From the IMG/VR virus record IMGVR_UViG_3300044695_004869: a stretch of DNA of 64,000 nucleotides. One strand, 5' to 3'. Both the position numbers and the translations under genes were made by a program. Origin of the DNA: a virus (taxonomy: Duplodnaviria; Caudoviricetes). This document shows positions 16,695 through 45,678 of the stretch, piece by piece (the stretch's first letter is position 1; each line of letters starts with the position of its first letter). The notes under the pieces are model-generated. The model saw nothing but the letters and a program-made list of their open reading frames with translations. It was not told the origin of the DNA and did not search any database.

Positions 16695-17763
16695 TATTTT
16701 TAGTGTATCTTAAAACTTTAGGACCTTCTTGAGTCGTTGTTGTTGTAGTCGTAGTTTCATCATCCAACATTATATCCATATACAAATTGTCAGATTCAAA
16801 TAATTCCTCAATATTAGGAACTACCTTTCCTTTTTCCACAAATACTTCAACAGGAACCTCAACAATCTTCTCAACCTCTTTAATTACCTCAACAGGAACC
16901 TCAACTATCTTTTCAATTATAATAGGATCAACTTCATCGGTTACTTCATCGGTACTTGGTCGTTTTCTATTTGCCTTAAACGCCTGATTAGTCGCAATAA
17001 CTAATGTGATTGCCAATGGATCAAATACAAAAATCAAAATAAGAATAAATAAATTTGCAACTTCATTAAGTCCCCAACCACTTAATTCACTAACATATTT
17101 AATTGCTCCAAGTTCATTACCTTCAATCTCTTGGGATTCCATGTCCAATATTTTAATGTCTAATCTAGTTATACTGTCGTTCATTGCATCAATTTTACCC
17201 GACACAATATCTCGGTTGTCTTGAGCAGATTTTAACTGTTTCTCAAATGATTGTCTATTTGCATTATTTGCTCTTGTTACAATTTGACCTGTTTGTCTAT
17301 CCACAGTTTGAGTTGTTGTATTGCTTGATAACCCGTCTCTCAACTTTGAGATGTCCTTATCCAATATTGTTTTTTCTTTAGTGTACTCTAATTTAATCTC
17401 CTCAAACCTGTTTTTTTTAACCTCAATGTTTTTAATCTGTTTATCATTGATCTCTAATTTTGCAATGTTTGATTGGAATCCAGTACTCAATAAACCGTAT
17501 ATTCCGATGGATGTGATAATTGACAAAATAATTAATGCCATTGTTAAATAAATCTTCAATGCTCCGTAAGTTTCTTTCCATTTATCGTGTAAATAAGTCG
17601 CAATTGCTATCTTGGAAACTTCCAAAAACCCACCCATAATAATAACAGGTATAGCAACCCCCACAAACACTATTGATAGTCCAACAACACTATAATAAGC
17701 CGCAGTTCCCGATAGACCCAACGCACAAAATAATAAAAACCAAGGTAAAAATTTTTCTTTCAT
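16684..17763 (-). CDS. Multi-TM membrane protein with coiled coil and EKIVEVPVE repeats
   Basis: Three N-terminal TM helices (AAYYSVVGL..IIMGGFLEVSK), coiled coil, a further TM (FVFDPLAI) and a poly-Thr tail; start set at MKEKF (17763). Confidence 0.8.
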   Translation of the reverse strand: MKEKFLPWFLLFCALGLSGTAAYYSVVGLSIVFVGVAIPVIIMGGFLEVSKIAIATYLHDKWKETYGALKIYLTMALIILSIITSIGIYGLLSTGFQSNIAKLEINDKQIKNIEVKKNRFEEIKLEYTKEKTILDKDISKLRDGLSSNTTTQTVDRQTGQIVTRANNANRQSFEKQLKSAQDNRDIVSGKIDAMNDSITRLDIKILDMESQEIEGNELGAIKYVSELSGWGLNEVANLFILILIFVFDPLAITLVIATNQAFKANRKRPSTDEVTDEVDPIIIEKIVEVPVEVIKEVEKIVEVPVEVFVEKGKVVPNIEELFESDNLYMDIMLDDETTTTTTTTQEGPKVLRYTKNNAG

Positions 17764-17781: not shown

Positions 17782-17807
17782 ATAAATATCAATAATAACA
17801 TATTTAT
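17782..17807. promoter_or_regulatory. Back-to-back TATTTAT motifs for divergent genes
   Basis: Minus-strand copy at 17782-17788 before 17763; plus-strand copy at 17801-17807 before 17814. Confidence 0.55.
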
Positions 17808-17813
17808 AATCAT

Positions 17814-19200: not shown

Positions 19201-19692
19201 TTAATTTTTGATTGATTGTGAATAATTATCTAATTTTTCTTTTTCTTCTTTTGTTAAGGATTGTACTCCCTGATCTTTAATTTTCTCTAAAATCTCGTCT
19301 ATTGTTAGATAACAAATACTGTGATTTGACCCACTAAAACTTTCCTTTAGAAACTCAATAAAGTTAGGGGATATATCTCCACTATCTTCATTTTGACTAT
19401 TAACCGCCATAAGGTGTTTGAGATGATCTGGTTCCATGTTTGAAGCAATCACCTTTGGTGTTGGGATTAAAATATACTTAAAATAACCGATATCTTCTGT
19501 TATAATATCAACATACATTGATAATTCACTATGTGACATCTCAGTCACAAAGTTAAAAACTACGTGTGATGGACCGAATACATATTTAATCTCATCCGAA
19601 TCAACGATTGGTGATAATTCTTCGGCAATTTGGTGAATATCATCTTCGGTTTTTTCTCCTTCCGAATAATAAACAAAAAGTAAGTACTTCAT
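19201..19692 (-). CDS. Hypothetical protein
   Basis: 163 aa; C-terminal IDEILEKIKDQGVQSLTKEEKEKL. Confidence 0.75.
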   Translation of the reverse strand: MKYLLFVYYSEGEKTEDDIHQIAEELSPIVDSDEIKYVFGPSHVVFNFVTEMSHSELSMYVDIITEDIGYFKYILIPTPKVIASNMEPDHLKHLMAVNSQNEDSGDISPNFIEFLKESFSGSNHSICYLTIDEILEKIKDQGVQSLTKEEKEKLDNYSQSIKN

Positions 19693-25258: not shown

Positions 25259-26113
25259 TTATTTTTTCAAATATTGTTTAACATTCATCTCTAAGATAGT
25301 ATTAATTGTCTTTTTATCAACTCTATGTTCAACATACTCTCTTTCTTCTGTTATTAGAACAATAATACATCCTAATAGTTGGATATTCTCATATTTAGAT
25401 CCCTCTAACATTTTTAACAATAACTTACCATATAGTGGAAGTTGTGTTTTATAGTGACCAAGAGCATTATCCGGTAAGTGATCAAGAGGTGTCTTCATTT
25501 GCTTTGTAAACTTATTGGTTTCAAAGTTTTTTGGTTTGTTTGTTTTCCAATCCGTGATAAGTATACCAACTTGACCATTAACACCAATAACTAACCAAAC
25601 CTTATCAGGTTGTCCTGTATATCCTAATTCAGGGTGACCCAATACAATTTCAGTATCTAATAATACACATCCTCGTTCTTTAAGAAGATCAATGTATTTT
25701 TTGCCGGCCACTATCATCGTATCACTTTTAACGATTTGTTCGGCATCACATTTAAAAACAGGTTGTCTCAATTCTTTCTCAAGACCGAACTCATTTAACG
25801 TATGTTCTTCTAAAAAGAAGTGAGATCTAGATCCAATGTTTACCGAGTACTCACCAGCCGCCGCCCATTCTTCTAATAGTCGTTGTTGTTCGTACGGATC
25901 TCCATTTGCCTTTCTGTATGAAATTCCTTCAGAATCAAATTCCTCATAAAATGATTTAAGAACTTTTGAAACAGATGGGAAATCATCTCTTAATTTACCA
26001 TCAACATCTATCATCGTATACTTATGAGAATCCTCCTCAAACGTTAGTTTAAGTTCTTTTTGCTTCTGAGCAATTATCTCACGTATTTCGTTAGCAACTT
26101 CTTTTAAATCCAT
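25259..26113 (-). CDS. PD-(D/E)xK (RecB-family) exonuclease
   Basis: E...YTGQPDKV...ITDWKT...QLPLY motifs. Confidence 0.8.
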   Translation of the reverse strand: MDLKEVANEIREIIAQKQKELKLTFEEDSHKYTMIDVDGKLRDDFPSVSKVLKSFYEEFDSEGISYRKANGDPYEQQRLLEEWAAAGEYSVNIGSRSHFFLEEHTLNEFGLEKELRQPVFKCDAEQIVKSDTMIVAGKKYIDLLKERGCVLLDTEIVLGHPELGYTGQPDKVWLVIGVNGQVGILITDWKTNKPKNFETNKFTKQMKTPLDHLPDNALGHYKTQLPLYGKLLLKMLEGSKYENIQLLGCIIVLITEEREYVEHRVDKKTINTILEMNVKQYLKK

Positions 26114-27349: not shown

Positions 27350-28936
27350 ATGAGTTGTAGTACAAATATTTGCATAAGCGGTACCGGAGTATATGATGAC
27401 ACATATACCATTGATGGTCTATATAATAGTTTAGATTACTATACGGGAGCCACTAATGGTTACTATATTTTTTATTCAACATCAGAAAGTAGGTGGTGTT
27501 TAGCATCTAATTTAGGTGACCCTTGTATTTTATTTGGTCCAAACCCAACATCAAGTAGTTGTCCCGATTTTTATCCATCAATTTTGTCTGATGGGGTTTG
27601 TGATCCAACACCTCCCACACCAGCACCTTGTGATATTGATTTTGATGCAGAATTTGATTGTGATGTTCCACCAACTCCAACCCCTACCCCAACCTCAACT
27701 TTAACTCCAACCCCAACAATGACTCCCACGCCAACTAATGTATGTGGTGGGGTCTCATTAGATGTCACCGCAAACACATATTCACCCACCCCCACACCTA
27801 CACCAACAAACACACCAACACCCTCATCACCAATTGATAGACCTTGTAATTATGATGGTGTTGCAAAATTTAATAATGTTGATGGATTTATTGTTTGTGC
27901 CACAAGTAAGAAATTTGAAGATTGTTTTACTGGTATTGAATACTACACAACACAAACTTTATTTGACTCAGTTGGTAATATATTAGTAGTTGGGGATGTT
28001 TATGGTGGTACAATAAACGGTAAATCATCTTGTTTTATATTCCAAACAATAGTTGATAATATAAGTGGTGGTGATAAAATTGTTATTACTACAGAATATG
28101 GTCCTTCTAGTGATGGTAGTTGTTTAGATTGTATTCCAACCACCTCTACACCAACACCAACACCAACAATGACCCCAACACCAACAACACCTTGTTCGTG
28201 TAACGCATATACAATATCAAACTTTAATTCTGCGGCTCAGATTGGAGTTATTACATTTAACGATTGTTCAGATAATAGATTAGTGGATTTAAGACCGTCG
28301 TCTATGGGTTGGCAATTTTGGGCTGATCGAGTAGTTCGTATTTGTTCCACCACAATACCAACTATTTCAGTAGGTAGCGCCGTAATAACTAATGTTGGTA
28401 TATGTTGTAATAGTAATCTTTGTGTTCAATATTTATTAAATAATAATAGTCCGGTTAATGGTCAATCATATATTTATACCGATTTATCAGGACTATCCAC
28501 AACTCAAACATTAAATGCATACCAAAGCATAATTGTTAATTCATTATCAACACCATATTCATTGTTTGGTGGAATAATTGTTAGTGAAACAGGTATACCT
28601 TGTTTCCCAAGTCCAACACCTACTCCAACACACACACCAACACCATCATCCACAAACCAAATTACAAGTTATAATTGGACTAGTGGAGCAAATTGGTGGT
28701 CTACGGATATATTGGCTTGTAGTAATTATGTATCATTTGCAAGTAATGGATGGATTACATCTACTTCATTACCTGTTGTCGGAATTCCATTAATCGATGC
28801 TTTATCAAATTTACCAATAACAGGTCAAAATAATCAATGGATTGCAATATCATCTGTATTAGCACCATCAGTTGTGGTTTATGCCGTACAAGTAGATTCT
28901 ACAGGAACAATAATTGACGTAGTACTTTGTCCATAA
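27350..28936 (+). CDS. Cys-rich putative virion/fibre protein with four (PT)n linkers
   Basis: Repeated PTPTPT tracts separating Cys-containing beta modules. Confidence 0.8.
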   Translation: MSCSTNICISGTGVYDDTYTIDGLYNSLDYYTGATNGYYIFYSTSESRWCLASNLGDPCILFGPNPTSSSCPDFYPSILSDGVCDPTPPTPAPCDIDFDAEFDCDVPPTPTPTPTSTLTPTPTMTPTPTNVCGGVSLDVTANTYSPTPTPTPTNTPTPSSPIDRPCNYDGVAKFNNVDGFIVCATSKKFEDCFTGIEYYTTQTLFDSVGNILVVGDVYGGTINGKSSCFIFQTIVDNISGGDKIVITTEYGPSSDGSCLDCIPTTSTPTPTPTMTPTPTTPCSCNAYTISNFNSAAQIGVITFNDCSDNRLVDLRPSSMGWQFWADRVVRICSTTIPTISVGSAVITNVGICCNSNLCVQYLLNNNSPVNGQSYIYTDLSGLSTTQTLNAYQSIIVNSLSTPYSLFGGIIVSETGIPCFPSPTPTPTHTPTPSSTNQITSYNWTSGANWWSTDILACSNYVSFASNGWITSTSLPVVGIPLIDALSNLPITGQNNQWIAISSVLAPSVVVYAVQVDSTGTIIDVVLCP

Positions 28937-28939
28937 AAA

Positions 28940-28993
28940 AAATATCGTCTATAAAGACGATATTTAAAAATATCGGTCAAAAAGACGATATTT
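28940..28993. repeat. Two tandem near-identical palindromes
   Basis: AAATATCGTCT-ATAA-AGACGATATTT and AAATATCGGTC-AAAAA-GACGATATTT, between convergent genes. Confidence 0.8.
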
Positions 28994-29046
28994 AAATTTA
29001 TATGTTAATTATCATATAAAGTAAAATATATGTTGTTTAACATATA

Positions 29047-29655
29047 TTATTCCCATATACCTTTTGATCTCATATAACCTAACACACAGGTATATGCATC
29101 TGTTTGATCAAAATTCTCTTTCTTAAGTGTTTGATTTTTTGTATATTGCCATTGGATCTGTGGTTCTCTTTTAGCAACTAATTCCCATATAACCATTTTC
29201 TTATCAACGTCTTTTGGGAGACCCCCAAATAGTACGTGTTTCTTCTTATCATTTTCTTTAACCAATTCAGGAAAAGCAAATTTCCTTGAATTATATGTAG
29301 AAATGAATTCAGGCACAATACCAATAATATCATAAATCGTTTTACATATTAATGTATTAAACCTTAATAAGGTTTGAATGGTATATACGTTATTTGAATT
29401 AAGTAATGGTTCTTCAATGATCACACTAACGATACCTAATTTTTTATAATCCTCTAATTTTGTTTTAAAAATTTCAGATTTAAGTATTAACTCTAACATT
29501 TTATTATCCTCAGTATCTTTTGATTTTGGTCTTGGTGATACATGAGTTAATTCTAATAGTTCTTGTGTCTTGATATCAAATAAGGCCCATCCTATTGTTT
29601 TAGTGGAAATATCTAACCCTAAAACTTTAGGTGAGTTTTTAATTGGTGTTCTCAT
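29047..29655 (-). CDS. RuvC-like Holliday junction resolvase
   Basis: VLGLDIST, VIIEEP and DQTDAY acidic motifs of the RNase H fold. Confidence 0.8.
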   Translation of the reverse strand: MRTPIKNSPKVLGLDISTKTIGWALFDIKTQELLELTHVSPRPKSKDTEDNKMLELILKSEIFKTKLEDYKKLGIVSVIIEEPLLNSNNVYTIQTLLRFNTLICKTIYDIIGIVPEFISTYNSRKFAFPELVKENDKKKHVLFGGLPKDVDKKMVIWELVAKREPQIQWQYTKNQTLKKENFDQTDAYTCVLGYMRSKGIWE

Positions 29656-29709
29656 ATAATGATTATTTTATAATAATATAATTAGACGATAATAAAACTA
29701 AAGTTTTTA

Positions 29710-32244
29710 TTATAAATCAAACTTAACTAAGAACTGTTGTATCCCTTGTCTTAAAACAGGTGATTGTAGTTTTGATACAACCAACACGTCTTTTTTGTCA
29801 TCTAATAACGCAATTTCAGTAATATAAGATTTTGTTCCTGGTGTCCATGTCGGATTTGACGTATTTTGGAATTCAGTATAATTTAAATTAACTTTATACA
29901 TCATTTCATAAATCGTTGCTTGAATATCGGTTTCAATCCCACCATAAAAATAATATTCATCACCAAAATTTAATTTTGGACTTGTATTACCAAGTGGGGT
30001 TAAATCAATATAGTCATTTAAGTTATAATATGGAGCCGAATTATACAAAGATTCCGTTACTATAAATGTGGTACCTGTTAAGGCATCTTCAGTAATATAA
30101 CCATTAATTGTGTCTCCACTAATACTATTTGTAAAATCTATTAACCTCCAATTAGATGGATTTGGTCTAGTACCTGTTGGTACTTTTTGTGCCAAAACTT
30201 CAAATTTAGTAGCATAAAAACCATTTGGTATATCACAAGTTGGGCAGAATGTGGTAGTAGTTGTAACAGGACTATATACTGTTGTTGTAGTTGTTATTGG
30301 ACTATACGTTGTTGTGGTTGTTGTTGGGTTGTATCCCGGTACAACTAAACATCCAAATTCACCACCAAATCTTATCGCCACGTTTTTAGACGTATCAGGG
30401 AAACAATCGTTATTATTACCCGTTATCTTAATATAATAATTGGAATGTAATGAATTTGTAAATCCGTAATCATTAGTTAAACGATATGTAATATACATAG
30501 TTTCATTACTACCCGTTAATATACCATTAATCGTAGATGAGGTTGTATCACATATATTCGGAGTTATTAATGATACTTGAGGTGCCGGTAATGTCCAATT
30601 TCGATTTGCTTTATATGACATTGCCGCAACAATTTCTTCATCATCAATAATAATAGTTTGACTATCAGGGAAAACTTTACCTATTCTACTTGGTAATCCA
30701 TTAGCATTAGGGTGAGTATCCCATAAGTGATAATATCTTAAACCAGGGTTATTCATATCATTATTAAGATTAGATTCCATGAAATGAACCTCAAATAATC
30801 CTTTACCATCAAATCCCGGAGGATCTACCCAAAATGTATCACCAAAACAACATTCAGGATTTTTATGCCACATAATCCAAGGAATGTGAACCTTAAAGTT
30901 TCTTGCCTGACCGGTTGTGTCGTCAGGGTTAGATGGATCATACGGTTCTAACGCAAATTTCTCACCATAGAAGAAGTCAATCGTTTGATTTGTATAATGT
31001 ATTATCGCAATCGCTTTTTGTTCTTCAGGTTCAACTTTTACCACCTCATCAAATGAGTTGTAGTAATATGTGTCAGTAGTTTCAGCACTTAAAGTTGAAT
31101 TAACATAAAAGGTTTGTCCTGAATTTGAATTATATCCAAAATACTCCTTACTTCCTATATAATTAACTGATCCAAAATAAGTATAGTCCTCAAATTGAGT
31201 TGATCTTAGACCCGCAGGACTTTCAGTCCAAGGAATATTCATATTCCAAATTTTAACATCAAACTGATCAACATCACATATTGTTTCATAGTTAATAACA
31301 TCATTATCCCAATGTGGACTTGGCGTTATACTATCATATAATTCTGTCATGGTTTTAGGGTATACTAAAGCCCTAAAACAACATTCATTACTAATTAAAC
31401 CAAAATTTGGTGTTGTTCTATCTAATGTAATTTTATTTTCACACACCGCAATGATTCTATAGGTTAATATTGGATAACAACTATACATAGACATTAAACA
31501 AACAGGATCCGGTGGAGCCGGACATTGTCTACTTGGTGTTGGTGTTAAACATTGAGTTTTTGATGGTGTTGGTGTAGGGGTAGGACTAGCACAATTTATT
31601 GTTCCACTAGTCGCAGAAGGTGTTGGGGTTGGAGTTGGGGTTGATCCTTGAGATGCCGTTGGAGTTGGGGTTGGTAGATTAACACAAGTACAATTGTTAC
31701 AACCCAAACCATCGAAATAAATTGTAATGAAATCACCAACATCAAATGATCCGGTTAAAAATGTATTACAACCAGAATAAATTAAAGTAATTTCATTAGT
31801 ACCATTTAATGAAAATGGATCAACTAAATAATTGGATGTTTTAACATAATTACTACTTGTTAATGCACTCCATGTGATTGTACTAGCGGTTGTATTACCC
31901 GTAAAAAACCCTCTCAAAGGAGCCCTATTAAAAACGTTTTCAACAGTAGAATCCATGTATGGAATACCATAAGTGTTACCGTCATTTCCATCAACATAAT
32001 ATGGATATTTAACATTTTGTTTGTTTGATTTTGGTATACCGTCACTATTTTGACTACCAAATGGTGGTATTAATACAAAACTATTTGCTTGATTATAAGT
32101 ACTAGAAACTTTATCGTAAGAAACTTCACTATCTCCAATTTGGAAATATGATATATTGAAATTGCCTTGAGACATTTTCAATCTACCTGTATCTGTCATT
32201 CTAGTGTTAACAAGTCCTGATGTATTTTTTATTATATATGCCAT
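29710..32244 (-). CDS. Putative tail/baseplate structural protein with PT and Thr tracts
   Basis: C-terminal YITEIALLDDKKDVLVVSKL..P resembles tail-fibre/collar attachment motifs; TATTTAT at 32252-32258. Confidence 0.75.
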   Translation of the reverse strand: MAYIIKNTSGLVNTRMTDTGRLKMSQGNFNISYFQIGDSEVSYDKVSSTYNQANSFVLIPPFGSQNSDGIPKSNKQNVKYPYYVDGNDGNTYGIPYMDSTVENVFNRAPLRGFFTGNTTASTITWSALTSSNYVKTSNYLVDPFSLNGTNEITLIYSGCNTFLTGSFDVGDFITIYFDGLGCNNCTCVNLPTPTPTASQGSTPTPTPTPSATSGTINCASPTPTPTPSKTQCLTPTPSRQCPAPPDPVCLMSMYSCYPILTYRIIAVCENKITLDRTTPNFGLISNECCFRALVYPKTMTELYDSITPSPHWDNDVINYETICDVDQFDVKIWNMNIPWTESPAGLRSTQFEDYTYFGSVNYIGSKEYFGYNSNSGQTFYVNSTLSAETTDTYYYNSFDEVVKVEPEEQKAIAIIHYTNQTIDFFYGEKFALEPYDPSNPDDTTGQARNFKVHIPWIMWHKNPECCFGDTFWVDPPGFDGKGLFEVHFMESNLNNDMNNPGLRYYHLWDTHPNANGLPSRIGKVFPDSQTIIIDDEEIVAAMSYKANRNWTLPAPQVSLITPNICDTTSSTINGILTGSNETMYITYRLTNDYGFTNSLHSNYYIKITGNNNDCFPDTSKNVAIRFGGEFGCLVVPGYNPTTTTTTYSPITTTTTVYSPVTTTTTFCPTCDIPNGFYATKFEVLAQKVPTGTRPNPSNWRLIDFTNSISGDTINGYITEDALTGTTFIVTESLYNSAPYYNLNDYIDLTPLGNTSPKLNFGDEYYFYGGIETDIQATIYEMMYKVNLNYTEFQNTSNPTWTPGTKSYITEIALLDDKKDVLVVSKLQSPVLRQGIQQFLVKFDL

Positions 32245-32263
32245 TTTGTATATAAATAGTTAA

Positions 32264-34327
32264 TTATTGAATTTTTGGTGGTTTAGGATTAACAACTCTT
32301 ATTGTATCACAATCATTATTAATTCTCACATTGTTTATGAAAATATAATATGATGAAGTTGCAACAAAACAATGTGGTGTTGGTAATATAGGTGAAATCG
32401 TGTTAGTAAATGACCCACCTATTGTTGTTCCAAATGTCATATTTAAACTAACCCAAGTAAATTGTTTTGTTGTATTATATTGGAATGATCCTTGACAAGG
32501 GAATGGTTGTGGTATTGGTGAAAGTTGATTCAATACCGGTGGTGGGGTATAAAGAACTGGAACACCATTAACATTTAAAGTAACCGTATTATTATAAGTC
32601 GCACTTGATGGAGAAGGACCAACATTAAACGTATTTTGATGTATAACATCAAAAGTAACTGTAGTACCAATAGGTAATGAAGGAGAAATACTCACTCCAA
32701 ATGTATTACCAGGTAAATAAGACATAGTTAAAATATAATTAACGGATAGTGTTGGAGCAGATAAAGACACAGTTTCTGTATATGTAAATCCTGAAGAATC
32801 TCTTACATAAACAACATAAGTACCTTGACATAAATTATTATAAATTGTTGTTGGTGCGTAAGTACTTCCCCCATTAATTGAATAGGTATATGGTGGTGTA
32901 CCACCAAAAGGAGTTAATAACAAACTTCCATCACACCCACATTCCGGATTATTAACAACTATATTTAAATTAGGGGTACTTATTAGTTGACATAACCCTA
33001 AAACCGCAGTTATTGATAATATTCTATTTGGTAATGTTGACCCTAAAGAATCCCAACCACTAAGTGGTGGTGTGGCAGGATTTGTATTAATTATTTGACC
33101 TGTAGTCCAACCAGATATTTCCCATTGATTATTTGATTCATTCCAAACAATATCTAACCCATCCGTAATATCTGTCCAAGTAGGATAATCCCCAATATAT
33201 CCATTAAAATCAAATTGATAATATTCCACAAAAGAAGTTTGTTTATCCCCTCTAATAATTGTAATACATATATCTTCATAAGATGGTAAAGGTTCTTGAG
33301 TTGTTGTTGTGGTGGTGATTGGTGTTTCAGCACTTAAAATACAAGTGGTATACGCCGTAAAATCACCATAATAATCAGTAACGACTGAACTATATTCCCC
33401 CACACCAATATTACTTAAAGATTGAGATAAAGATCCATTTTCCCAAACAACTTCATATGGAGGAGTTCCCCCTGTTATTCCTAAAGTTATTGCCCCATCA
33501 AAAGAATCCGCACTTGTAGGATCCACGGTAAAACATTCAACCCCAAGAGGAAAAATAGTTATTACAGAACATTCATTTTTTGGTTCAATTGGTGGGATAG
33601 GGGGGGCAAATGTTGTTGTGGTTGTTACAACGGGTTCAGTTGTTGTAGTTGTAATTACAGGACAATCAGGACAATCACCATTATTAATTACCTGAACATC
33701 CCCACCTAAAATTTTAATCCCACTTGAACTACATAATGAAATACCTGTTTGGTATTGAATAAAATATGGTGATTTTTTAGTTTCACCACAACAAGGTGTA
33801 AATTCAATTGAAGTTTTAACATTTGGTGCCGATTGGTTAGTTACAAAATAATTTACACAACAACTGTGATCAACAATACAGTTATTACAACTATTATATG
33901 GGGTACTATCAAAAGAAACAACACTAACATTTTCAGACCCATTTACACTACAAGAATGTGTATTTACGCTACCGATACTTATTAACTCATAACAACCTGT
34001 TTTATAGTTATTAGGATTTGACGATGAGATCGCCTGATCAAAATATATTGTGTCACCAATTTGATAAGTACTAAACGGATATTGATCACTTCCATCAAAA
34101 TCAATAATCTCCCCGTTACAACAACTTTGAAAACAATACCTGAAATCCTCTTTACCTAAATTAAGTACCGTAATAAATACGGCTGGCGACACAACACTAT
34201 TACCATTTATATAATAAGAAACATTTGGTAATAAATCCATTGATTTACTAACCCCATTACCATCAACAAATGTGAAGTTATTGTATATAACCGGGTTTAT
34301 ATTTTCTACCTTATATATTATCGCCAT
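32264..34327 (-). CDS. Putative virion fibre protein with SprB-like repeats and Thr tracts
   Basis: GGTPPYEVVW and GGTPPYTYSING..NLCQGTYVVYVRDSSG; TATTTAT at 34348-34354. Confidence 0.75.
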   Translation of the reverse strand: MAIIYKVENINPVIYNNFTFVDGNGVSKSMDLLPNVSYYINGNSVVSPAVFITVLNLGKEDFRYCFQSCCNGEIIDFDGSDQYPFSTYQIGDTIYFDQAISSSNPNNYKTGCYELISIGSVNTHSCSVNGSENVSVVSFDSTPYNSCNNCIVDHSCCVNYFVTNQSAPNVKTSIEFTPCCGETKKSPYFIQYQTGISLCSSSGIKILGGDVQVINNGDCPDCPVITTTTTEPVVTTTTTFAPPIPPIEPKNECSVITIFPLGVECFTVDPTSADSFDGAITLGITGGTPPYEVVWENGSLSQSLSNIGVGEYSSVVTDYYGDFTAYTTCILSAETPITTTTTTQEPLPSYEDICITIIRGDKQTSFVEYYQFDFNGYIGDYPTWTDITDGLDIVWNESNNQWEISGWTTGQIINTNPATPPLSGWDSLGSTLPNRILSITAVLGLCQLISTPNLNIVVNNPECGCDGSLLLTPFGGTPPYTYSINGGSTYAPTTIYNNLCQGTYVVYVRDSSGFTYTETVSLSAPTLSVNYILTMSYLPGNTFGVSISPSLPIGTTVTFDVIHQNTFNVGPSPSSATYNNTVTLNVNGVPVLYTPPPVLNQLSPIPQPFPCQGSFQYNTTKQFTWVSLNMTFGTTIGGSFTNTISPILPTPHCFVATSSYYIFINNVRINNDCDTIRVVNPKPPKIQ

Positions 34328-34355
34328 TTAAGTTATTTGTTTAATATATAAATAA

Positions 34356-35336
34356 TCAATTTATTGTTTTTTGAATAAATGATTTCATTACTTCAATATA
34401 TTTTATTGTAGTACTGTTCTTTTCAATGTAATCAAAATGTGATGGATTCTCTTTCAATTTTTCTATTGGATCAACATTTATATATTCACCCTTATAAAAT
34501 TTAGTACCTCTCAAATTATCCGTAACTCCAGCCATATGTAAAATTGGTCTTTCTTCGTAGATTTTTATATCATCTGTCGCCCAAGAAAAATTTAAATCAT
34601 CCACTACTTTGGTTTCATAATTATGTAACCATAAATTCCATAATAAAGACCACATTTCCGCAGTCCAAAATTGTATTTCACCAGGACTTATTGGATGTCT
34701 TTTATGATAATCATGCATTTGTTTATATAATGGAACACAATCTAAATATATTTTTTCCCAAAGTTCATACGTCATATTTTTTAACAAATATTGACCACCA
34801 CCCGAACTTTCTTGATTTGTTTTTATGACATCAACATCCAAACCAACAACATCCGCCATTTCTTTTAATAATTGACCTTTTTCTGATTTAGGATGAGCTC
34901 TTTCATATCTATCACAACAATCGGTTATATAATTGTATCCAATATAACCTATGGTGTCAGATAAATAACAAACATTATCTTTCATCAATTTATCAAAATC
35001 AGGCAATTCCCTAAAAATAATGTCGGCATCATGTAAGAAAAATACTTCACCATATTGGGGATGTTCATATAACCATCTTGATATTAAATATGGTTTAATA
35101 CTTGGGATATAATTTTTACCAATTCTTTCATCATAATAAAAATGTACATTAAACCCATAATCACATAATTCTAAAGCCCCTTGTGATGGTTCTTTTTGTC
35201 CATTAGTTAATCCGAAAATAACGTGAATTTGACATGGGTTAATTCCTTTTTCAATAAAATTATGAGTATAAAGTTTTACTTGCCAATGAAAATATGGTAC
35301 GTCAGGTTGGGCAGTAACAAAAATGATATCCTTCAT
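34356..35336 (-). CDS. GT-A fold glycosyltransferase resembling GT96 (SGT1)/GT95 (HPAT) protein O-glycosyltransferases
   Basis: YFHWQ, YIPSIKPYLISRWL, HDADIIFR (DxD), GYIG, WTAEMW motifs in the same order as plant SGT1. Confidence 0.78.
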   Translation of the reverse strand: MKDIIFVTAQPDVPYFHWQVKLYTHNFIEKGINPCQIHVIFGLTNGQKEPSQGALELCDYGFNVHFYYDERIGKNYIPSIKPYLISRWLYEHPQYGEVFFLHDADIIFRELPDFDKLMKDNVCYLSDTIGYIGYNYITDCCDRYERAHPKSEKGQLLKEMADVVGLDVDVIKTNQESSGGGQYLLKNMTYELWEKIYLDCVPLYKQMHDYHKRHPISPGEIQFWTAEMWSLLWNLWLHNYETKVVDDLNFSWATDDIKIYEERPILHMAGVTDNLRGTKFYKGEYINVDPIEKLKENPSHFDYIEKNSTTIKYIEVMKSFIQKTIN

Positions 35337-35377
35337 GATATAAAAGATATGTAACTTTTTAATAAAGTGAATTTATT

Positions 35378-37954
35378 TTACGCACTACAACTATAAGATG
35401 CAATACAAGCATCACAATCTCCAACAAATGTTATACCCGACCAACTTAAGTTAGGGGATTGAGGGTCTAATGATTGTACTTCGTAACATTGATTATCTGT
35501 ACCAATTATAATAGATCCAAGAGATGTGGATGTTGGTAAAATTACCCATTTTTTAGTTACACTGTCACAACAATATATTACCTCAAATACCGAGAAATCA
35601 CCACTTTTTGTTGGTGTCATAGTTGGGGTTTTAGTTACTGTTGGGGTTAGAGTTTTAGTTACTGTTGGAGTAGGTGTTAGAGTTTTAGTTACTGTTGGTG
35701 TTAGAGTTTTAGTTATTGTTGGAGTTGGTGTTAATGTGTTTGTTGGTGTAATAGTTGGTGTTGGTGTTATTGTTGGAGTTGGGGGTGTAACGTCACATTG
35801 TACACAAGAAATATCATAATTAATGATTAAATTAATAATGACTTTAGCATCCGCTAGTGTGTTAAATTTTGTTGGGTTACAACTTTTGTTAACATCTTTA
35901 CAATCATTAACTATAGTTATTTTATTTTTGGTAATATCTATATCTACTTCACCAATATCGGGGTAAGATAATAACACACTCTTTACAATATTAGCCCATT
36001 CAGTATCTGTTGGGTAATCATATATTCCTGTTGAGGTATAAAATAAATTTTGTTTAACCTCTCCATTAACAATTGTTTCAATTATAAATTGACCACTATT
36101 AACAATACAATTTAGATCATTTTCTGTCAAATCAAAAAACCCTTCATTATACATTTGACCAATACCTCTTCTACCATCAATTCCACTATTAACAAAATTA
36201 GTATCACTTATGTTATAAACCTGATAATTACCTAAAAGTATTGTCCCACTTAAAACAACAGTTTTATTATATGTACACCCAGAACTATCCACAACTTGTA
36301 AACTATATGTCCCGGCACTTAAATTTGTCACAGTTGATCCAGTTTGTAAATTTACATTTGAGGACCAATTATAGGTAAATGGTGGTGTACCACTACTAAT
36401 AAAAGCAATTATTTGACCATCATTACCATTAACAGGTTGAATTGTTAATAAATTAAAAAATACAGAACTTGATGGTCCGACATATGTTGTTGTAATTTGT
36501 GAACATCCATTCGCGTCTGTGACAGTAACTGTATAAAATCCTGATGGTAAGTTATTATAACTATTAATAGGTGAAACCGCATATCCTGTTATTTGATAAC
36601 TATATGGTAATGTTCCACCAGTCGTAGTTAATATCTGAATAGACCCATTATTTAATCCACAAGTTGTATTAGTTGTTAACGCCGTTATTGAAAATAAATT
36701 AACATTTGTAATAGTTGCCGACCCCGTATAAACACAACCCGAATTATTATCTATTAATATTGTATATGTATCTGAAGGTAAATTACTAAAAGTAGCATTA
36801 GTTCCAACCGTAATAGCATTAACCGTATTACCTGAAGAATCCAATATTGTATAAGTAAAAGTACCTGTTGGGGACCCGGTGTTTACTAAAATATTTATAG
36901 TTCCATTATTACCACAATTTGAGTTTGTTGATGTTATGGATGATACCGCAAATCCATTTGGTGTTATTAACGATATTGATTGAGTGTCGCTACATAATCC
37001 CGCATCTTTAACCGTAACTACTAAAGTACCCGAAGGTAGGTTATCAAACGTATAAGTGTTAGAAAAAGTTATTGACGTATCACCATTAGATCCCGAAAAA
37101 AAGAATGGAGCTGTTCCACCAGTTACCGTCACTTCAACGGCACCATCACTATTAAAACACGTACTTCCGGTCGTTGTAAATGACGCAATTCCTATAGGTG
37201 GTACATTATTAACAGATGCCCCCTCTGTAACAGAACATCCATTTGAATCTGTAACAGTAACGGTATAAAACCCAACAGTTAATCCCGTTGCCGTTGATCC
37301 AGTTTGACCATTACTCCAAAGATATGTGTACGGTCCAACACCTGTTTGACCCGTAACAAATATTTTACCTGATCCACCGGAAACATTACAACTAGCATCA
37401 TCAACAACATAAAACCCATAATCTAAAGTTGTTGATGTTAAAATAACAACACTTGCACTTAATCCTGTACAACCACCACCATCATCACCAATTATATAAT
37501 AAGTTCCTCCCGATAAGTTTGTAAATGTTAATCCACTTGTTGATGTTGCTCCACTAGTTATATAACCATTTGTTGTTTCATATAATAATCCGGTGCCGTA
37601 ACCATAAAAAGGCGTAAATCCAAAAGTTATTTCACCATTATCAACCCCACAAGTAGTATTTAATGCCGATTCAACACTTATTGTTGATCCTGAAGATATT
37701 GGTATATTAAGATATTCGGTAGTCGCACCAGAAAGACAAGAATCTTGTATCGCTAAAACATAGGTATCGGCAGAAAGACCACTATAATAATATGTGGTTG
37801 TTGCCGCGGATGTTGGTAATAATCCTGTTGATGTAACCTCATAAACAGTATACGGAGACGCACCTCCCGCTATTTCAACATAGATTTCACCAACGTTTGT
37901 ATTAGTACAATCGCCGGTTATGTATAAATTATATAGTATTTGTCCACAACTCAC
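35378..37954 (-). CDS. Putative virion fibre protein with multiple SprB-like repeats
   Basis: GVGPYTYLWSNGQTGSTATGLTVGFYTVTVTDSNGC and similar units; long PT/TK linker and Cys-rich C-terminal module. Confidence 0.8.
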   Translation of the reverse strand: MSCGQILYNLYITGDCTNTNVGEIYVEIAGGASPYTVYEVTSTGLLPTSAATTTYYYSGLSADTYVLAIQDSCLSGATTEYLNIPISSGSTISVESALNTTCGVDNGEITFGFTPFYGYGTGLLYETTNGYITSGATSTSGLTFTNLSGGTYYIIGDDGGGCTGLSASVVILTSTTLDYGFYVVDDASCNVSGGSGKIFVTGQTGVGPYTYLWSNGQTGSTATGLTVGFYTVTVTDSNGCSVTEGASVNNVPPIGIASFTTTGSTCFNSDGAVEVTVTGGTAPFFFSGSNGDTSITFSNTYTFDNLPSGTLVVTVKDAGLCSDTQSISLITPNGFAVSSITSTNSNCGNNGTINILVNTGSPTGTFTYTILDSSGNTVNAITVGTNATFSNLPSDTYTILIDNNSGCVYTGSATITNVNLFSITALTTNTTCGLNNGSIQILTTTGGTLPYSYQITGYAVSPINSYNNLPSGFYTVTVTDANGCSQITTTYVGPSSSVFFNLLTIQPVNGNDGQIIAFISSGTPPFTYNWSSNVNLQTGSTVTNLSAGTYSLQVVDSSGCTYNKTVVLSGTILLGNYQVYNISDTNFVNSGIDGRRGIGQMYNEGFFDLTENDLNCIVNSGQFIIETIVNGEVKQNLFYTSTGIYDYPTDTEWANIVKSVLLSYPDIGEVDIDITKNKITIVNDCKDVNKSCNPTKFNTLADAKVIINLIINYDISCVQCDVTPPTPTITPTPTITPTNTLTPTPTITKTLTPTVTKTLTPTPTVTKTLTPTVTKTPTMTPTKSGDFSVFEVIYCCDSVTKKWVILPTSTSLGSIIIGTDNQCYEVQSLDPQSPNLSWSGITFVGDCDACIASYSCSA
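35620..35785 (-). repeat. Coding tandem repeat (TPTVTKTL / PTITPT units)
   Basis: Imperfect 24-30 nt repeats with core GTTAGAGTTTTAGTTA(C/T)TGTTGG. Confidence 0.85.
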
Positions 37955-40900: not shown

Positions 40901-40968
40901 AAGTTGTCAGAAAAAGTGCCTTGACCGCTGGCAGGCTGAGGAGGACATTTATATTTATTTACCGCCAT
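37951..40968 (-). CDS. Putative baseplate wedge protein (gp7/P2 gpI-like segment)
   Basis: LLKNLAQTLGW...RNLILNSAFLFKSKGTRKSIEILLRMVG motif. Confidence 0.7.
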   Translation of the reverse strand: MAVNKYKCPPQPASGQGTFSDNLVGLQLVDGGGLTQANFEFTTNITEKQNRTFSIGSFSDPISLDTLNINSIEESKKLIADNFRVYPNFDLSQVTNFTMFGSLTKRMSTSVSNIINYFPAALDIQSTQPNFVTSLTVQNASYNSVEDETYFEIPISVIRNPFGIDYTVDATRNIELREIPVSYLRNFTTQYLKYSLFLNDVEYPVSDFIPAQPTDTVFKIYVNGNPFLSNTTSSDNFLIRPKQLYVNKVFNENLDQVENFLLNRNMVPIYSAYFQVPIENEDGTYSYGQEVAIFPLIGTWNLDIVSPKFTNYLTKLNTIAEYIDLYKTNLITRFLTADAIKEFDTSDRKMEKVLQIYGRSFDETRKFITALANMNSVNYNVKNDIPSQLLKNLAQTLGWNINISPITNDQLLNAVFSDGSNAFTGLPQGQTPEELNYQYFRNLILNSAFLFKSKGTRKSIEILLRMVGAPEALTEFNEHVYVADQKINLRQFNIQYAQISGGTYSQELPVLDTNDLFSIMGVQYTGFTTTTISQDVSLTINDYPIDSYGFPSMPVPTDTYFFQIGGGWFESTPQHRMPEQVDLTNSVFTGANPNYQTKLLPFNYGQEYLERYRSFPYMNLGFNLRKTVDNKKSWTDNEKYLRKNFDGNFNAYYGVSDDRLVINVKNVDLFMNPAQGLVYDVWSMSRRYNYPIPEQGLFYVDPTYCNPYPNIEYPNRGGIDWTVIVPKPKQKTFFEFAQTFWKNMINVRNRQFMTDGKTSGYPTLSSIYWKYLESEQAINVPNDNFNYQTMIDYVNGMGDYWIRLVEQMIPATTIWNTGVKYENSIFHRQKFVWRRQRGCEIIPVPCKPCKLITQIFSYDCPVQQTVVGLYPWDTNPSITSFGALLGSSLTTYGNDINVDINNDCLLNTLESDWYIDIRIDGTPIIIYEFFNGVGYSNPSLSVPTANDWINGLYDALVGLLDYGLDYIINTDDQTITIYNNNCLPLDTTQNFELNVGINFDILCNP

Positions 40969-41876
40969 TATGAAGTTATATTTGAGAAGTTTTTACTAAA
41001 ATCAATGTTATCACCTCTATCTTGTCTTACCTCATATAATAAATTATTAAATTGATCTCTAATCTCATAAAGGTTGTATTGTTTGTAGATATTGTTATCA
41101 CTATCGTAAATGGTGTATATACCATCATCCATAGATTTGGTTTGATTACCGTATAACGCAATCGCCAATGTTGATATATCGTGTTCAACAATTTCAATTT
41201 CAACCGTTGTTGGGTTGAAGAATGTATTTGAGATTATAATATTTTGATCAGGTTGTCCAATAAATGGTGTTGCATTTGGTTTATTGGTTGGTGATGATGA
41301 TGGTGATAACGTACAAAAAATCAAGTTTGTTGACGCTTCTACATATCTATATCTTATCGCTTTTTGACTAGTGTTTGTTAAATTTTCAACCACAGGTTCA
41401 CAATAAAATGATGAGGTTATTATCCTAAAGAAGTTAGGAATTTTTGTTCCATCAGAATTTAAATATTCAACTCTAAAACCAACTAAACCTTGATTAATAA
41501 ATTTGTTTCTAAAGTTAGATGGTACATTATTGATGTCTACAACGATACCTTTAACATTTGGTAATGCAGATAAAATACCACAGTCAAGAATTTTAGTTCT
41601 AATTTCCGCAGGTCTTATATATAGTGTGTAAATCCCTAATTGGTTAAATTGATCGGTTGGTAATTTAAGATTATATAAACCCCCAAGTATTTCAACATTC
41701 GCATTACCACCAGTAGTTCCATTGTGGAAATATGGTCGTAATACAGTACTAGCATTTAATTTTGTTAGTACGAAATTGTCCGTTTCGTCTCTTGATGGTG
41801 TATAATTTAAAATTATTTCTACGTCATCAGGACTCACATCAGCACTTCTTATTGTTCCGTAATTACCTGTAGCCAC
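40968..41876 (-). CDS. Putative structural protein (GTG start)
   Basis: 302 aa within the baseplate cluster; TATTTAT at 41913-41919. Confidence 0.75.
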   Translation of the reverse strand: MATGNYGTIRSADVSPDDVEIILNYTPSRDETDNFVLTKLNASTVLRPYFHNGTTGGNANVEILGGLYNLKLPTDQFNQLGIYTLYIRPAEIRTKILDCGILSALPNVKGIVVDINNVPSNFRNKFINQGLVGFRVEYLNSDGTKIPNFFRIITSSFYCEPVVENLTNTSQKAIRYRYVEASTNLIFCTLSPSSSPTNKPNATPFIGQPDQNIIISNTFFNPTTVEIEIVEHDISTLAIALYGNQTKSMDDGIYTIYDSDNNIYKQYNLYEIRDQFNNLLYEVRQDRGDNIDFSKNFSNITS

Positions 41877-43922: not shown

Positions 43923-45678
43923 CTACTATTGGTTCTGCTATTACGGTTATGTCATCAATACCCACATTATCACCTTCAGGTGTTATTCTAAAAATGGTGT
44001 TTACAAATGGGTAATGTTTACCATTTATAAATGGATAGTCAACTCCAACCCCATCGTTATCAACAAACCCATATGGATATATATCTCTCCATCTAAAACT
44101 ATTTGATAAGTTTGAATAAAAAGCGTAATCAGGAATGTTAACAACTTTTAATGGGTCTCCTTCCTCAACATATGTTGAATATCTTCTTATTACTATTGGG
44201 TCATGGGGTTTATAATAATAACCAAATTGATTAGATTGTGGGGCATCTGTATTTAACCCAAAATAATTTTGATTAAATGTAATTTTTTGATTGTACCTCG
44301 AAATCACCCTTTCAGTTTGTTCATAATCATTCCACTCACAATAATCACCATCAATTAAGTCACCAGATTTAAGATTTTCATTAAAAATAAATGGTCCAAC
44401 CGGTGGAACTGTTAAACTATTGTATGTATTAGTTGAGATATTTGTATTAGATAAAGGGTTTGAAACGTCCCACCAAGGATTGGGTATCGTATTACTAAGT
44501 GGTGTATTAAAATCCCAACCTTGTTTTAATCTTTTTGTCCACCCAAAATATCCTTTCCATACCGTTGTAAAGTATAATTCGGATATAGGTCTGTTTTGAT
44601 TATCCCTAAGTGGTTGTACATCAATATCCACATTAAAAGAAAGAGAATATGCTTGACCCCCTTCTTTAACAGATGATCTTGACACATTATTTGGTGTCAA
44701 CACCGCGGTTTCAAATTTAGTTTTTGGAATATAAATATTTTGTTCAAAACCAGCCTTTACTAAAACCGCATCTTCAGCGTTTGTTAAAATTTTATGAACT
44801 CTTACATAATATTCCGATTTAGTTTCATTAAGGTTACTTCTATTAATAACCCTTTTAAACGTACCAATGTTACCATTATTAAACGTTGTACCAATATATC
44901 CAATATTATATATGTTAAAAATATATTCATTACTACCAAAAGCCGGATCCCCCAAACTAATTACCTGAAATATACTTGTGTTATTATAAGTTAAAGATAG
45001 TTCAACAAACTCATTAACATTTAAACCATGTTTCATTGGACATCTAAATGAAATGACGGGTCCGAAATCATCATTACCTTGACTAATTATAAATGGTATA
45101 CCATCTGAAGCAACCCAAGCCCAACTTGCGGTTGTTATATTATCAATAGCATACATTTGTCTATTGGGTTCATTAGTAAAACCATAACTGATATAATGTG
45201 TCCAATTATATGTACTGGCACTTTTATTAACAAAATTTATATGGTTATTTGGTGGTACGGTATAACCAACAATATTATTGTCGGTTCTTATAAAATCAAA
45301 TTCAAAATATTGAGGATATCCCTCCCAAAGCACACTTAAGTTAGGTTGTATTGGGGGTAAGTTACCATTAGGAAACGTAGAAATTGTGTTAGCAATTGCA
45401 TTAGTGTAATATAGGTTGTTTTTAAAAGGAGCATAATTTGTTGTTCCCGTATATGTATTTTTAAAAATGACCGAATATTTTGTCACAGGTCTAAAAATAG
45501 TCCCCCTTTGTCTTTCATCACTAAAAACTTGTTGTAACCCCAAATCAACATTTCTATCAAATTCAATTAATTCTTTTTCATTTTGATTTAAATCAACATT
45601 TACGGACAATACCGTATTTGGGGACGCTTTGTATCTCAAAGACCCTAAAACAATTTTTGTTGTGTCATTTACTCCCAT
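43909..45678 (-). CDS. Putative structural protein
   Basis: 589 aa, overlapping neighbours in the operon. Confidence 0.75.
   Translation of the reverse strand: MGVNDTTKIVLGSLRYKASPNTVLSVNVDLNQNEKELIEFDRNVDLGLQQVFSDERQRGTIFRPVTKYSVIFKNTYTGTTNYAPFKNNLYYTNAIANTISTFPNGNLPPIQPNLSVLWEGYPQYFEFDFIRTDNNIVGYTVPPNNHINFVNKSASTYNWTHYISYGFTNEPNRQMYAIDNITTASWAWVASDGIPFIISQGNDDFGPVISFRCPMKHGLNVNEFVELSLTYNNTSIFQVISLGDPAFGSNEYIFNIYNIGYIGTTFNNGNIGTFKRVINRSNLNETKSEYYVRVHKILTNAEDAVLVKAGFEQNIYIPKTKFETAVLTPNNVSRSSVKEGGQAYSLSFNVDIDVQPLRDNQNRPISELYFTTVWKGYFGWTKRLKQGWDFNTPLSNTIPNPWWDVSNPLSNTNISTNTYNSLTVPPVGPFIFNENLKSGDLIDGDYCEWNDYEQTERVISRYNQKITFNQNYFGLNTDAPQSNQFGYYYKPHDPIVIRRYSTYVEEGDPLKVVNIPDYAFYSNLSNSFRWRDIYPYGFVDNDGVGVDYPFINGKHYPFVNTIFRITPEGDNVGIDDITVIAEPIVDDCE

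Follow-up and report, generated by a model that had tools for sequence, protein, structure and literature searches.

A glycosyltransferase encoded among the fibre genes of a bacteriophage probably glycosylates Thr hydroxyls in Thr-rich tracts carried by virion proteins of that same phage. The gene lies in a 64,000-nucleotide stretch of viral DNA (IMG/VR record IMGVR_UViG_3300044695_004869; hereafter, the window) and belongs to a family that recurs beside poly-Thr tracts in other phages, a pairing that suggests a widespread, so far undescribed form of phage virion sugar-coating. An earlier note on this DNA had read the locus as that of a phage glycosylating its own fibre linkers. The fold of the enzyme and the coupling of its family to such tracts support that reading computationally, with glycosylation itself still a proposal. 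Our literature search found no published reports of glycans on these phages or of this system, nor of anomalous masses for the structural proteins of phage 1706. The features of the locus are collected in Table 1.

Table 1. Glycosyltransferase gene, candidate promoter, and candidate acceptor tracts in the window.
Feature	Position	Strand	Evidence
phrog_4417 GT-A glycosyltransferase, HPAT/SGT-like fold, 326 aa, predicted soluble	34356..35336	-	HMM, AF2, Foldseek
Bipartite element TTCACTTT-N14-TATCTTTT, candidate own promoter of the enzyme gene, Bacteroidota-like -7 box	35342..35371	-	kept in relatives
SprB-repeat adhesin/fibre, 858 aa, 25 Cys, directly upstream of enzyme; candidate acceptor	35378..37954	-	PF13573 E 1e-19
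60-aa PT/TKTL tract of the 858-aa protein, aa 723-782	35609-35788	-	translation
SprB-repeat fibre, 687 aa, directly downstream of enzyme; candidate acceptor	32264..34327	-	PF13573 E 3.7e-11
Poly-Thr linkers of the 687-aa protein, aa 220-249 and 335-348	33581-33670, 33284-33325	-	
Structural-type protein, 844 aa, three PT and two poly-T tracts; candidate acceptor	29710..32244	-	translation
PT tracts of the 844-aa protein, aa 191-230	31555-31674	-	
Poly-Thr tracts of the 844-aa protein, aa 640-669	30238-30327	-	
Cys-rich modular protein, 528 aa, four (PT)n linkers; candidate acceptor	27350..28936	+	translation
(PT)n linkers of the 528-aa protein	27668-27736, 27767-27832, 28136-28192, 28589-28654	+	
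T8 run, 15 residues from the C-terminus of the 378-aa ORF 16684-17820; possible further tag	16732..16755	-	

The enzyme gives a full-length HMM match to phrog_4417 (E 3e-70; residues 6-319 against profile positions 3-290 of 293), a family annotated as of unknown function that spans more than 800 clusters at 50% identity. The motifs listed in the earlier note occur in the order claimed, with YFHWQ at residue 15, YIPSIKP at 76, RWL at 87, DADIIFR at 103, GYIG at 130, WTAEMW at 224, and KVVDDL at 243. In an alignment of 62 family sequences, most of them hold invariant or near-invariant residues (W18, Y76, D103, D105, Y131, W224, M228, and W229), while KVVDDL is unconserved. D105, H267, and K282 are invariant and D103 is nearly so, the DxD motif being D103-A-D105. 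The AF2 model (pLDDT 97.2) identifies the product as a metal-dependent DxD glycosyltransferase with a Rossmann-like GT-A fold and a downstream His. More than 400 GT-A matches to the model were recovered from the PDB at E≤1e-3, and the structure search returned retaining GT-A enzymes with protein or glycan substrates, among them glycogenin, UGGT, and XXYLT1. A PDB search with the protein sequence yielded a chance match only, and the Pfam search of the window enzyme returned no family at E≤1, PF23452 and PF01501 included. The first β-strand of the catalytic domain begins at residue 5 and therefore leaves no space for a membrane anchor; an N-terminal hydrophobic segment is absent from both model and translation, and the enzyme is predicted to be soluble, with no N-terminal anchor. 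Domain fusions in the family involve other glycosyltransferase domains (PF11397 GlcNAc-T, O-FucT, and GT6). No DNA near-identical to the window was found among GenBank phages.

Best structural matches to DNA or LPS enzymes had been set beforehand as a refuting test; in Foldseek, the best matches are peptidyl O-glycosyltransferases of families GT96 and GT95. The top match among reviewed proteins is Arabidopsis SGT1 (GT96; Q8VYF9), with E 4.7e-11, TM 0.62, and 15% identity over residues 3-324. The GT95 enzymes RDN1, PLENTY, NOD3, and HPAT1-3 reach TM 0.59-0.62 (rmsd 5.1-5.9), and RDN2 and the Chlamydomonas SGT reach 0.55; E values over the GT95/GT96 matches range from 4.7e-11 to 3.6e-7. AFDB clusters labelled 'HPAT-like domain' rank straight after the enzyme's own family (TM 0.52-0.63). 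Enzymes of the GT8 kind (glycogenin, the UGGT catalytic domain, XXYLT1, and galactinol synthase), several of which act on proteins or protein-bound glycans, share the fold class, the DxD motif, and the downstream His, but score lower (TM only 0.42-0.48), and their family PF01501 is unmatched. PF23452 (HPAT; curated cut-off 23.9 bits) is the sole Pfam family matched by more than two of the 62 family members (3/62, best E 1.3e-4) and also marks neighbouring Atlas clusters; in three near-complete relatives of the window it had no match at E≤10. By sequence threshold, then, the enzyme is not a member of GT95 or of Pfam HPAT.

The likeness to SGT1/SERGT1 (GT96) and to HPAT1-3, RDN1, PLENTY, and NOD3 (GT95) thus lies in the GT-A fold, the DxD motif, and the rank of these enzymes as best structural matches, whereas the phage and plant sequences share only about 15% identity, and the window protein and its lineage fall below any PF23452 threshold. 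SGT1/HPAT-type enzymes place single sugars on hydroxyl side chains of Pro-rich, low-complexity extensin repeats (PMC4908140), and the acceptor proposed for the phage enzyme is of the same low-complexity kind. The plant enzymes reside in the ER/Golgi, whereas the phage protein is predicted to be soluble and unanchored and is encoded by phages of bacterial hosts. The phage tracts are Thr-rich, in contrast to the Ser-Hyp4 motifs of the plant system. The earlier note had given Ser/Hyp as the acceptors of the plant enzymes and prolyl hydroxylases as genes to look for; prolyl 4-hydroxylase (PF13640) gave no match in three relatives that are 93-100% complete, with control genomes responding. Given a score below the HPAT threshold, the predicted lack of a membrane anchor, and relatives without prolyl hydroxylase, the acceptor is probably Thr rather than Hyp or Ser.

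Across phages, homologues are linked to Thr-rich structural genes in about 15 deeply divergent lineages, with matched negative controls. Thr runs of at least six residues lie within 6 kb of the homologue in 9/9 divergent GenBank lineages (VPE25, SA2, phiFL1A, iLp84, phiCTP1, bIL285, 1706, Iacchus, and MA9V-3), compared with 10/235 random viral control loci (P about 1e-11). In these nine lineages most runs form the C-terminal tail of a capsid or tail-tube protein whose gene lies directly upstream of that for the enzyme, and some occur in small ORFs. A blind poly-Thr scan of IMG/VR recovered the enzyme at 9 of 118 loci, each time immediately downstream of, and abutting, the tract gene, versus none of 235 poly-Ser and poly-Gly control loci (Fisher P 4e-5); these nine enzymes are just 30-36% identical to that of the window. 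Seven homologous structural modules that lack the enzyme have no Thr run of five or more, and their matched tail or capsid homologues, up to 60% identical, align through the core as far as the start of the tail. A lack of linkage between homologues and PT-rich genes had been named beforehand as refuting; linkage to Thr-rich structural genes is present, and the partner that recurs across the family is poly-Thr rather than (PT)n.

In the window, all five ORFs are present as the earlier note described them, and the four Cys-rich fibre or adhesin neighbours carry (PT)n or poly-Thr linkers. The label 'fibre-like' is reasonable because both enzyme-flanking ORFs contain SprB adhesin repeats (PF13573) and lie downstream of a Baseplate_J gene. 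Only 5 of the 52 genes in the window bear tracts, four of them at 27.3-38.0 kb. A syntenic orthologue of the 844-residue protein in the relative L005 retains both tract types, and the four PT tracts of the 528-residue protein are also found in its orthologues in L005 and G001. The T8-bearing ORF adjoins an amidase gene; it and several other window ORFs went unmatched in PHROG and Pfam. Flexible linkers of the PT type are common irrespective of glycosylation, and fibre genes cluster anyway. A predicted complex of the enzyme, Mn, and the PT tract of the 858-residue fibre scored 0.01, with a pLDDT of 29 for the partner, values too low to count for or against the pairing.

Within the window's own lineage, the linkage of enzyme and tract is regional, not strict. 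PT or poly-T ORFs lie within 10 kb of the enzyme in 76/80 relatives, with a tract in the gene immediately upstream in 12/38 and immediately downstream in 24/47. In G001 (291 kb), which with G002 and G003 makes up the near-complete relatives used for whole-genome searches, five of nine tract genes lie no more than 7 kb from the only copy of the enzyme gene and the other four are more than 45 kb away. The relatives measure 274-318 kb at 31% GC and encode DnaJ and many glycosyltransferases, including seven or eight GT2 genes whose products could be the actual protein glycosylation enzymes; they also carry SprB/Bacteroidota signals. The window comes from a jumbo phage of freshwater type that probably infects Bacteroidota. 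Size, DnaJ, glycosyltransferase number, and Bacteroidota signals resemble the published description of the 'Moraphage' jumbo phages. These are freshwater phages of 200-307 kb, predicted to infect Flavobacteriia, that have DnaJ/DnaK genes and a core of four glycosyltransferase orthogroups assigned no specific role or acceptor (PMC12619734).

We propose that the gene product, a cytoplasmic DxD GT-A enzyme, would move a sugar from a nucleotide sugar to Thr hydroxyls in low-complexity, Thr-rich stretches of virion proteins that the phage itself encodes, either ahead of assembly or while it proceeds. In the window phage, it would modify the linkers between domains of the Cys-rich fibre/adhesin proteins with SprB repeats that are encoded near the gene, with (PT)n possibly used beside poly-Thr. 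For the small phages of Firmicutes, the targets of the family would be the poly-Thr tails at the C-termini of the major capsid protein and the tail-tube protein. Linkers or the particle surface would thereby gain a mucin-like coat of sugars, for which stiffening, protease or antibody shielding, and adhesion are candidate roles.

The enzyme gene may also have a promoter of its own, as the earlier note suggested from a host-type element just upstream. TATCTTTT indeed occupies 35349..35342 of the minus strand, which is the coding one, and 5 nt separate it from the ATG. The pattern TAnnTTT[GT] within the last 30 nt is kept by 23 of 38 non-redundant relatives, mostly with ATTCACTTT, and the bipartite site is the only one of its kind preceding a gene in the window. 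It resembles the TATCTTTG boxes that precede non-structural genes; fibre genes carry TATTTATA. A generic sigma-70 promoter scan returned sites no more frequently than in shuffled sequence. Conservation and resemblance to non-structural-gene boxes partly support the promoter claim, and as to timing we infer only that the enzyme may be expressed ahead of the fibre genes.

An alternative target of the enzyme is a glycan of the host envelope (LPS, capsule, teichoic acid, or the phage receptor), altered for instance to block superinfection; the Thr tracts would then be ordinary unglycosylated linkers. WbbM appears among the PDB matches, GT8-type LPS enzymes have the same fold, some carriers are temperate (phiFL, bIL285), and the enzyme gene of Iacchus adjoins a glycerophosphodiester phosphodiesterase gene. 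We nonetheless regard this reading as quite unlikely. Lytic and temperate carriers alike have the gene within late structural operons, immediately behind that for the capsid or tail tube, and in matched homologues the poly-Thr tail comes and goes with the enzyme; the predicted lack of a membrane anchor and structural matches clearly better for GT95/96 than for GT8 also speak against it. Another cytoplasmic target (a host or non-virion phage protein, or a small molecule), with placement beside fibre genes a moron-like accident in each lineage, is likewise unlikely. The virion function is still a proposal from sequence and models, linkage in the window lineage is loose, and poly-Thr tails also occur in phages without the phrog_4417 family (G004-G007, one of them 99% complete). 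Such an explanation, however, needs repeated independent coincidence in about 15 lineages, and all nine enzyme loci of the blind scan place the gene immediately next to the tract.

There is very little to recommend the idea that the enzyme glycosylates DNA, as a hypermodification shielding the phage genome from restriction. Glycosyltransferases of phages do often act on DNA, a point made in general terms for moraphages (PMC12619734), and a Dam-type methylase is also encoded in the window. Against this, DNA glycosyltransferases are absent among more than 500 structural matches of the enzyme model, small temperate lactococcal and enterococcal carriers have the gene in the structural module, and the poly-Thr coupling would be left unexplained. 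A related idea, based on a supposed hexose modification of VPE25 DNA, was set aside; the literature search gave no support for it, and the genomic context pointed to structural modules.

To our knowledge, phage virion glycosylation has been demonstrated in only a few mycobacteriophages, where it alters antibody recognition. In Che8, Rita, and others, phage glycosyltransferases are described as decorating C-terminal regions of capsid or tail-tube subunits and forming a glycan shield (Freeman et al. 2023, as cited in PMC12619734, PMC11256854), and Maravista (cluster F1) has its glycosyltransferase genes close to the genome's 3' end (PMC11256854). We read virion glycosylation by the phrog_4417 family as a variant of that system. 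At the genomic level, the same pairing of a glycosyltransferase with low-complexity candidate acceptor regions is found in about 15 lineages, and Firmicutes members likewise adjoin capsid or tail-tube genes with C-terminal poly-Thr tails. Unlike in Maravista, the enzyme gene is embedded in the structural module; unlike in mycobacteriophages generally, the hosts belong to other phyla and the proposed acceptor is explicitly marked by poly-Thr or (PT)n, tracts that in the window form internal fibre linkers rather than capsid or tube tails.

If virion glycosylation holds, the task known from mycobacteriophages falls to a different family of enzymes in phages of lactococci, enterococci, staphylococci, clostridia, and lactobacilli, and in abundant freshwater jumbo phages. 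Several such Firmicutes phages are used or considered for therapy or are relevant to dairy fermentation. A poly-Thr tail together with phrog_4417 would then be a simple sequence rule for predicting coated virion proteins, phrog_4417 would gain a testable function, and a short, genetically encodable tag would become available for glyco-engineering phage particles. A family of plant cell-wall glycosylation enzymes would also be linked to bacterial viruses. A broader reading, to which we give even chances, is that phages of at least two bacterial phyla share a portable two-part 'glyco-tag', in which a soluble HPAT/SGT-like transferase is paired with a poly-Thr/(PT)n tag appendable to any virion protein (capsid, tail tube, connector, or fibre linker) for a mucin-like coat, the family being a prokaryotic-virus branch of the plant/algal extensin enzymes, whose own origin would then become a question.

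The open reading frames, motifs and linkers listed in the earlier note were all found in the window sequence. A Pfam search returned no match for the 326-aa candidate glycosyltransferase (the enzyme), and PHROGs placed it in phrog_4417, whose function is not annotated (E 3e-70). In an exhaustive search, this family comprised 826 clusters (50% identity). When 62 diverse members were aligned, residues Y76, D105, Y131, G180, W224, F250, H267, G270, K282 and Y313 were invariant, and D103 was among the near-invariant positions; the conserved residues amount to a DxD motif with a His further downstream, as is usual for the metal site of GT-A enzymes. AlphaFold2 modeled the enzyme from this alignment with a pLDDT of 97.2 and a pTM of 0.94. 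The first strand of the model begins at residue 5, and the enzyme is therefore predicted to lack a membrane anchor. The likeness to plant extensin glycosyltransferases that the earlier note had proposed from motifs was supported by the predicted structure: among reviewed proteins, the top match was Arabidopsis peptidyl-serine alpha-galactosyltransferase (E 4.7e-11, TM 0.62), followed by RDN1, PLENTY, NOD3 and HPAT1-3 (TM 0.59-0.62). RDN2 and Chlamydomonas SGT reached a TM of 0.55, and GT8-type enzymes only 0.42-0.48. The AFDB clusters search returned the enzyme's own family first and algal 'HPAT-like domain' proteins second; PDB matches were glycogenin, UGGT, XXYLT1, GTA and WbbM, and BFVD yielded family members, then giant-virus GT8-like proteins. 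No DNA glycosyltransferase was among the matches from reviewed proteins, AFDB clusters, PDB or BFVD.

PF23452 (HPAT) was the sole Pfam family to match more than two of the 62 members (three members, best E 1.3e-4). It also marks neighboring Atlas clusters, but even with the threshold at E 10 its model did not detect the window lineage. We conclude that phrog_4417 enzymes form a separate and distant branch within the HPAT/SGT-like GT-A group; by the curated criterion, the window enzyme is not a member of GT95. In some family members, the domain is fused with a PF11397 GlcNAc-transferase, O-FucT, GT6 or methyltransferase domain. In the multidomain proteins P0155, P0156, P0143, P0230 and P0171, the phrog_4417-type domain is joined to these or to an F5/8 type C lectin domain, and one of the five is labeled as originating from a Bacteroidota MAG.

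Of 50,697 GenBank phage records, 77 contain the family; from these we opened nine lineages, whose enzymes mostly share less than 50% identity. In 9/9 of them, stretches of 6-12 consecutive Thr lie no more than 6 kb from the enzyme, in line with the link to PT-rich structural genes that the earlier note set out as a check. Typically, such a stretch is the C-terminal tail of the capsid protein, the tail-tube protein or both (capsid and tail of phiFL1A and 1706; tails of bIL285, VPE25, SA2, iLp84 and phiCTP1). The enzyme gene comes after the capsid gene in VPE25, bIL285 and iLp84, and after the tail-tube gene in phiFL1A, phiCTP1, 1706 and SA2; for Iacchus and Chryseobacterium phage MA9V-3, the two ORFs directly preceding it contain long tracts of Thr or of Thr/Ser. 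Because runs of at least six Thr occur in 10/235 random viral loci, the chance of 9/9 is P ~1e-11 if the lineages are independent, a status assigned by enzyme identity only, both here (n = 9) and for the IMG/VR loci (n = 9). In 1706, capsid and tail both end with HHD after a Thr run. The lactococcal capsid and tail proteins share such an ending, 9-10 Thr and then HHD or RHD, which suggests a modular, transferable tag.

Starting from the tract, we searched IMG/VR for uninterrupted runs of nine ACN codons. The enzyme was present in 9 of the 118 loci listed, compared with 0/118 and 0/117 among those listed by equal poly-Ser and poly-Gly scans (Fisher P 4e-5). At all nine loci, its gene directly adjoins the tract-bearing gene on the 3' side of the latter, which encodes a Cys-rich protein of 558-2069 aa with poly-Thr linkers. 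These enzymes are 30-36% identical to that of the window and mostly below 45% to each other, adding about seven further lineages.

Modules without the enzyme provided matched negatives. About 200 records homologous to the bIL285 tail protein lack the enzyme; in four that we opened, from Ruminococcus, Streptococcus, Leuconostoc and Bacillus phages, the conserved core is intact to the last motif and is followed by unrelated short tails, and stretches of at least five Thr are absent over 14 kb. For the tail and capsid proteins of phiFL1A, the alignment with a Streptococcus relative (60% identity) stops only a few residues short of the C-terminus, and only enzyme-bearing phiFL1A has the poly-Thr extension; two Lactobacillus relatives follow the pattern of the Streptococcus phage. 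In total, 7/7 modules without the enzyme had no poly-Thr. Conversely, poly-Thr tails occur without phrog_4417 in four records, one of them 99% complete, and two of the four carry a GT2 gene; such tags may be the substrate of glycosyltransferases from other families. In a siphovirus-like module (L096 on the IMG/VR contig G004; L194 on G005), three consecutive proteins end in 12-17 Thr, namely a DnaT_2-like connector, a 64-aa ORF and a probable tail protein. The contig lacks a phrog_4417 enzyme, and both G004 and G005 have a GT2 gene elsewhere.

In the window, the enzyme gene lies inside a co-oriented run that begins with the baseplate gene and continues with ORFs of 1888, 589, 273, 390, 302, 1005 and 858 aa; after the enzyme come ORFs of 687 and 844 aa and, as the last member, a resolvase gene. 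Both directly flanking ORFs contain SprB adhesin repeats. Tracts occur in 5 of the 52 window genes, four of them at 27.3-38.0 kb. Each of these four proteins has 20-25 cysteines, and the tracts are positioned between Cys-containing modules.

Features of the window and of compared loci
Location	Strand	Feature	Remark
4552-5307		non-structural gene	TATCTTTG upstream
5687-7750		leucine-rich-repeat protein, 687 aa	structural; TATTTATA-like box upstream
7792-8631		D12 Dam-type methylase	
8871-9800		DnaJ	full: J, CXXCXGXG and C-terminal domains
12263-13672		structural gene	TATTTATA-like box upstream
16095-16694		Amidase_2 gene	
16684-17820	-	378-aa ORF, no assigned function	T8 run 15 residues before C-terminus; overlaps start of Amidase_2 gene; may be a further tagged protein
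18397-19197		sigma-70 family protein	regions 1.2, 2 and 4
19201-19692		non-structural gene	TATCTTTG upstream
25259-26113		non-structural gene	TATCTTTG upstream
27350-28936	+	tract-bearing ORF	convergent with 29047-29655
28940-28965		hairpin, 11-bp stem, then T-run	likely terminator
29047-29655	-	gene	
29710-32244		tract-bearing structural gene	TATTTATA-like box upstream
32264-34327		tract-bearing structural gene	TATTTATA-like box upstream
34356-35336	-	enzyme	
40968-41876		structural gene	TATTTATA-like box upstream
45678-51344		structural gene	TATTTATA-like box upstream
51418-53256		baseplate gene	
G001:C1:121854-122561		NAD-dependent sugar epimerase/dehydratase	
G001:C1:218992-222152, 271701-280704		two clusters of GT2 genes	
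L093: 2468-4528, 5238-5975		1706	9-10 Thr then HHD/RHD at extreme C-terminus
L092: 8129-8737		bIL285	as for 1706
L096: 4640-7255		G004 Thr-tailed module	

The 41-nt gap before the enzyme ATG reads, on the coding strand, TTCACTTT, 14 nt, TATCTTTT, 5 nt, ATG. TAnnTTT[GT] is kept in the last 30 nt in 23 of 38 non-redundant relatives, mostly along with ATTCACTTT; the background of 2.7 per kb per strand predicts ~6%. The bipartite site is unique within the window. TATCTTTG, found upstream of non-structural genes, fits the Bacteroidota -7 consensus TAnnTTTG, whereas the fibre genes are preceded by TATTTATA-like boxes, which may be late promoters. Since the element is conserved and unique and the fibre genes carry different boxes, the separate expression proposed in the earlier note survives in this form: it is plausible that the enzyme gene has its own promoter, of a class different from its neighbors'.

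Judged by its gene content, the window phage is a tailed, contractile-type phage, since it encodes a Baseplate_J wedge protein along with class I ribonucleotide reductase, DnaB helicase, FEN-type exonuclease, UvsX-like recombinase, sigma-70 family protein, DnaJ, Dam-type methylase, primase and RuvC-like resolvase. Its GC content is ~31%, and no GenBank phage was close at the DNA level. Hundreds of relatives of the enzyme (57-95% identity) lie on viral contigs from metagenomes, the longest being 318 kb, including three near-complete genomes of 274-318 kb, of which G001 (291 kb) has 31% GC. In SprB repeats, DnaJ, genome size and many glycosyltransferase genes, the lineage resembles the freshwater, Bacteroidota-infecting moraphages of PMC12619734.

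Within this lineage, enzyme-tract linkage is regional: PT or poly-T ORFs lie within 10 kb of the enzyme in 76/80 relatives, with a tract in the immediately upstream ORF in 12/38 and in the immediately downstream ORF in 24/47. G001 has a single enzyme copy and tracts in 9 of 293 genes, five of these within 7 kb of it. Hydroxyproline is an unlikely acceptor because the three near-complete relatives contain no prolyl 4-hydroxylase. They also have no NTP-transferase, and two of them encode a single NAD-dependent sugar epimerase/dehydratase; the host probably supplies the nucleotide sugar that serves as donor, which the epimerase may modify. Seven or eight GT2 genes are present, and further enzymes may elongate the primary sugar.

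The model shows a soluble DxD GT-A enzyme whose closest structural relatives O-glycosylate low-complexity Pro-rich repeats, and genomic comparison shows a family-wide coupling to Thr tracts on virion proteins. An enzyme that modifies a host glycan, glycosylates DNA or acts on an unrelated target would fit less well with the operon position, the co-variation of tail and enzyme, and the structural matches. Virion glycosylation is established in mycobacteriophages (Freeman et al. 2023, cited by PMC12619734 and PMC11256854); our literature search found no paper tying GT95/96-like enzymes or poly-Thr tags to phages. We propose that, in the cytoplasm and ahead of assembly, the enzyme would O-glycosylate Thr residues of the poly-Thr and (PT)n tracts. 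In the window phage, the acceptors would be the fibre linkers, which the sugar coat would stiffen or protect, or it would mediate adhesion.
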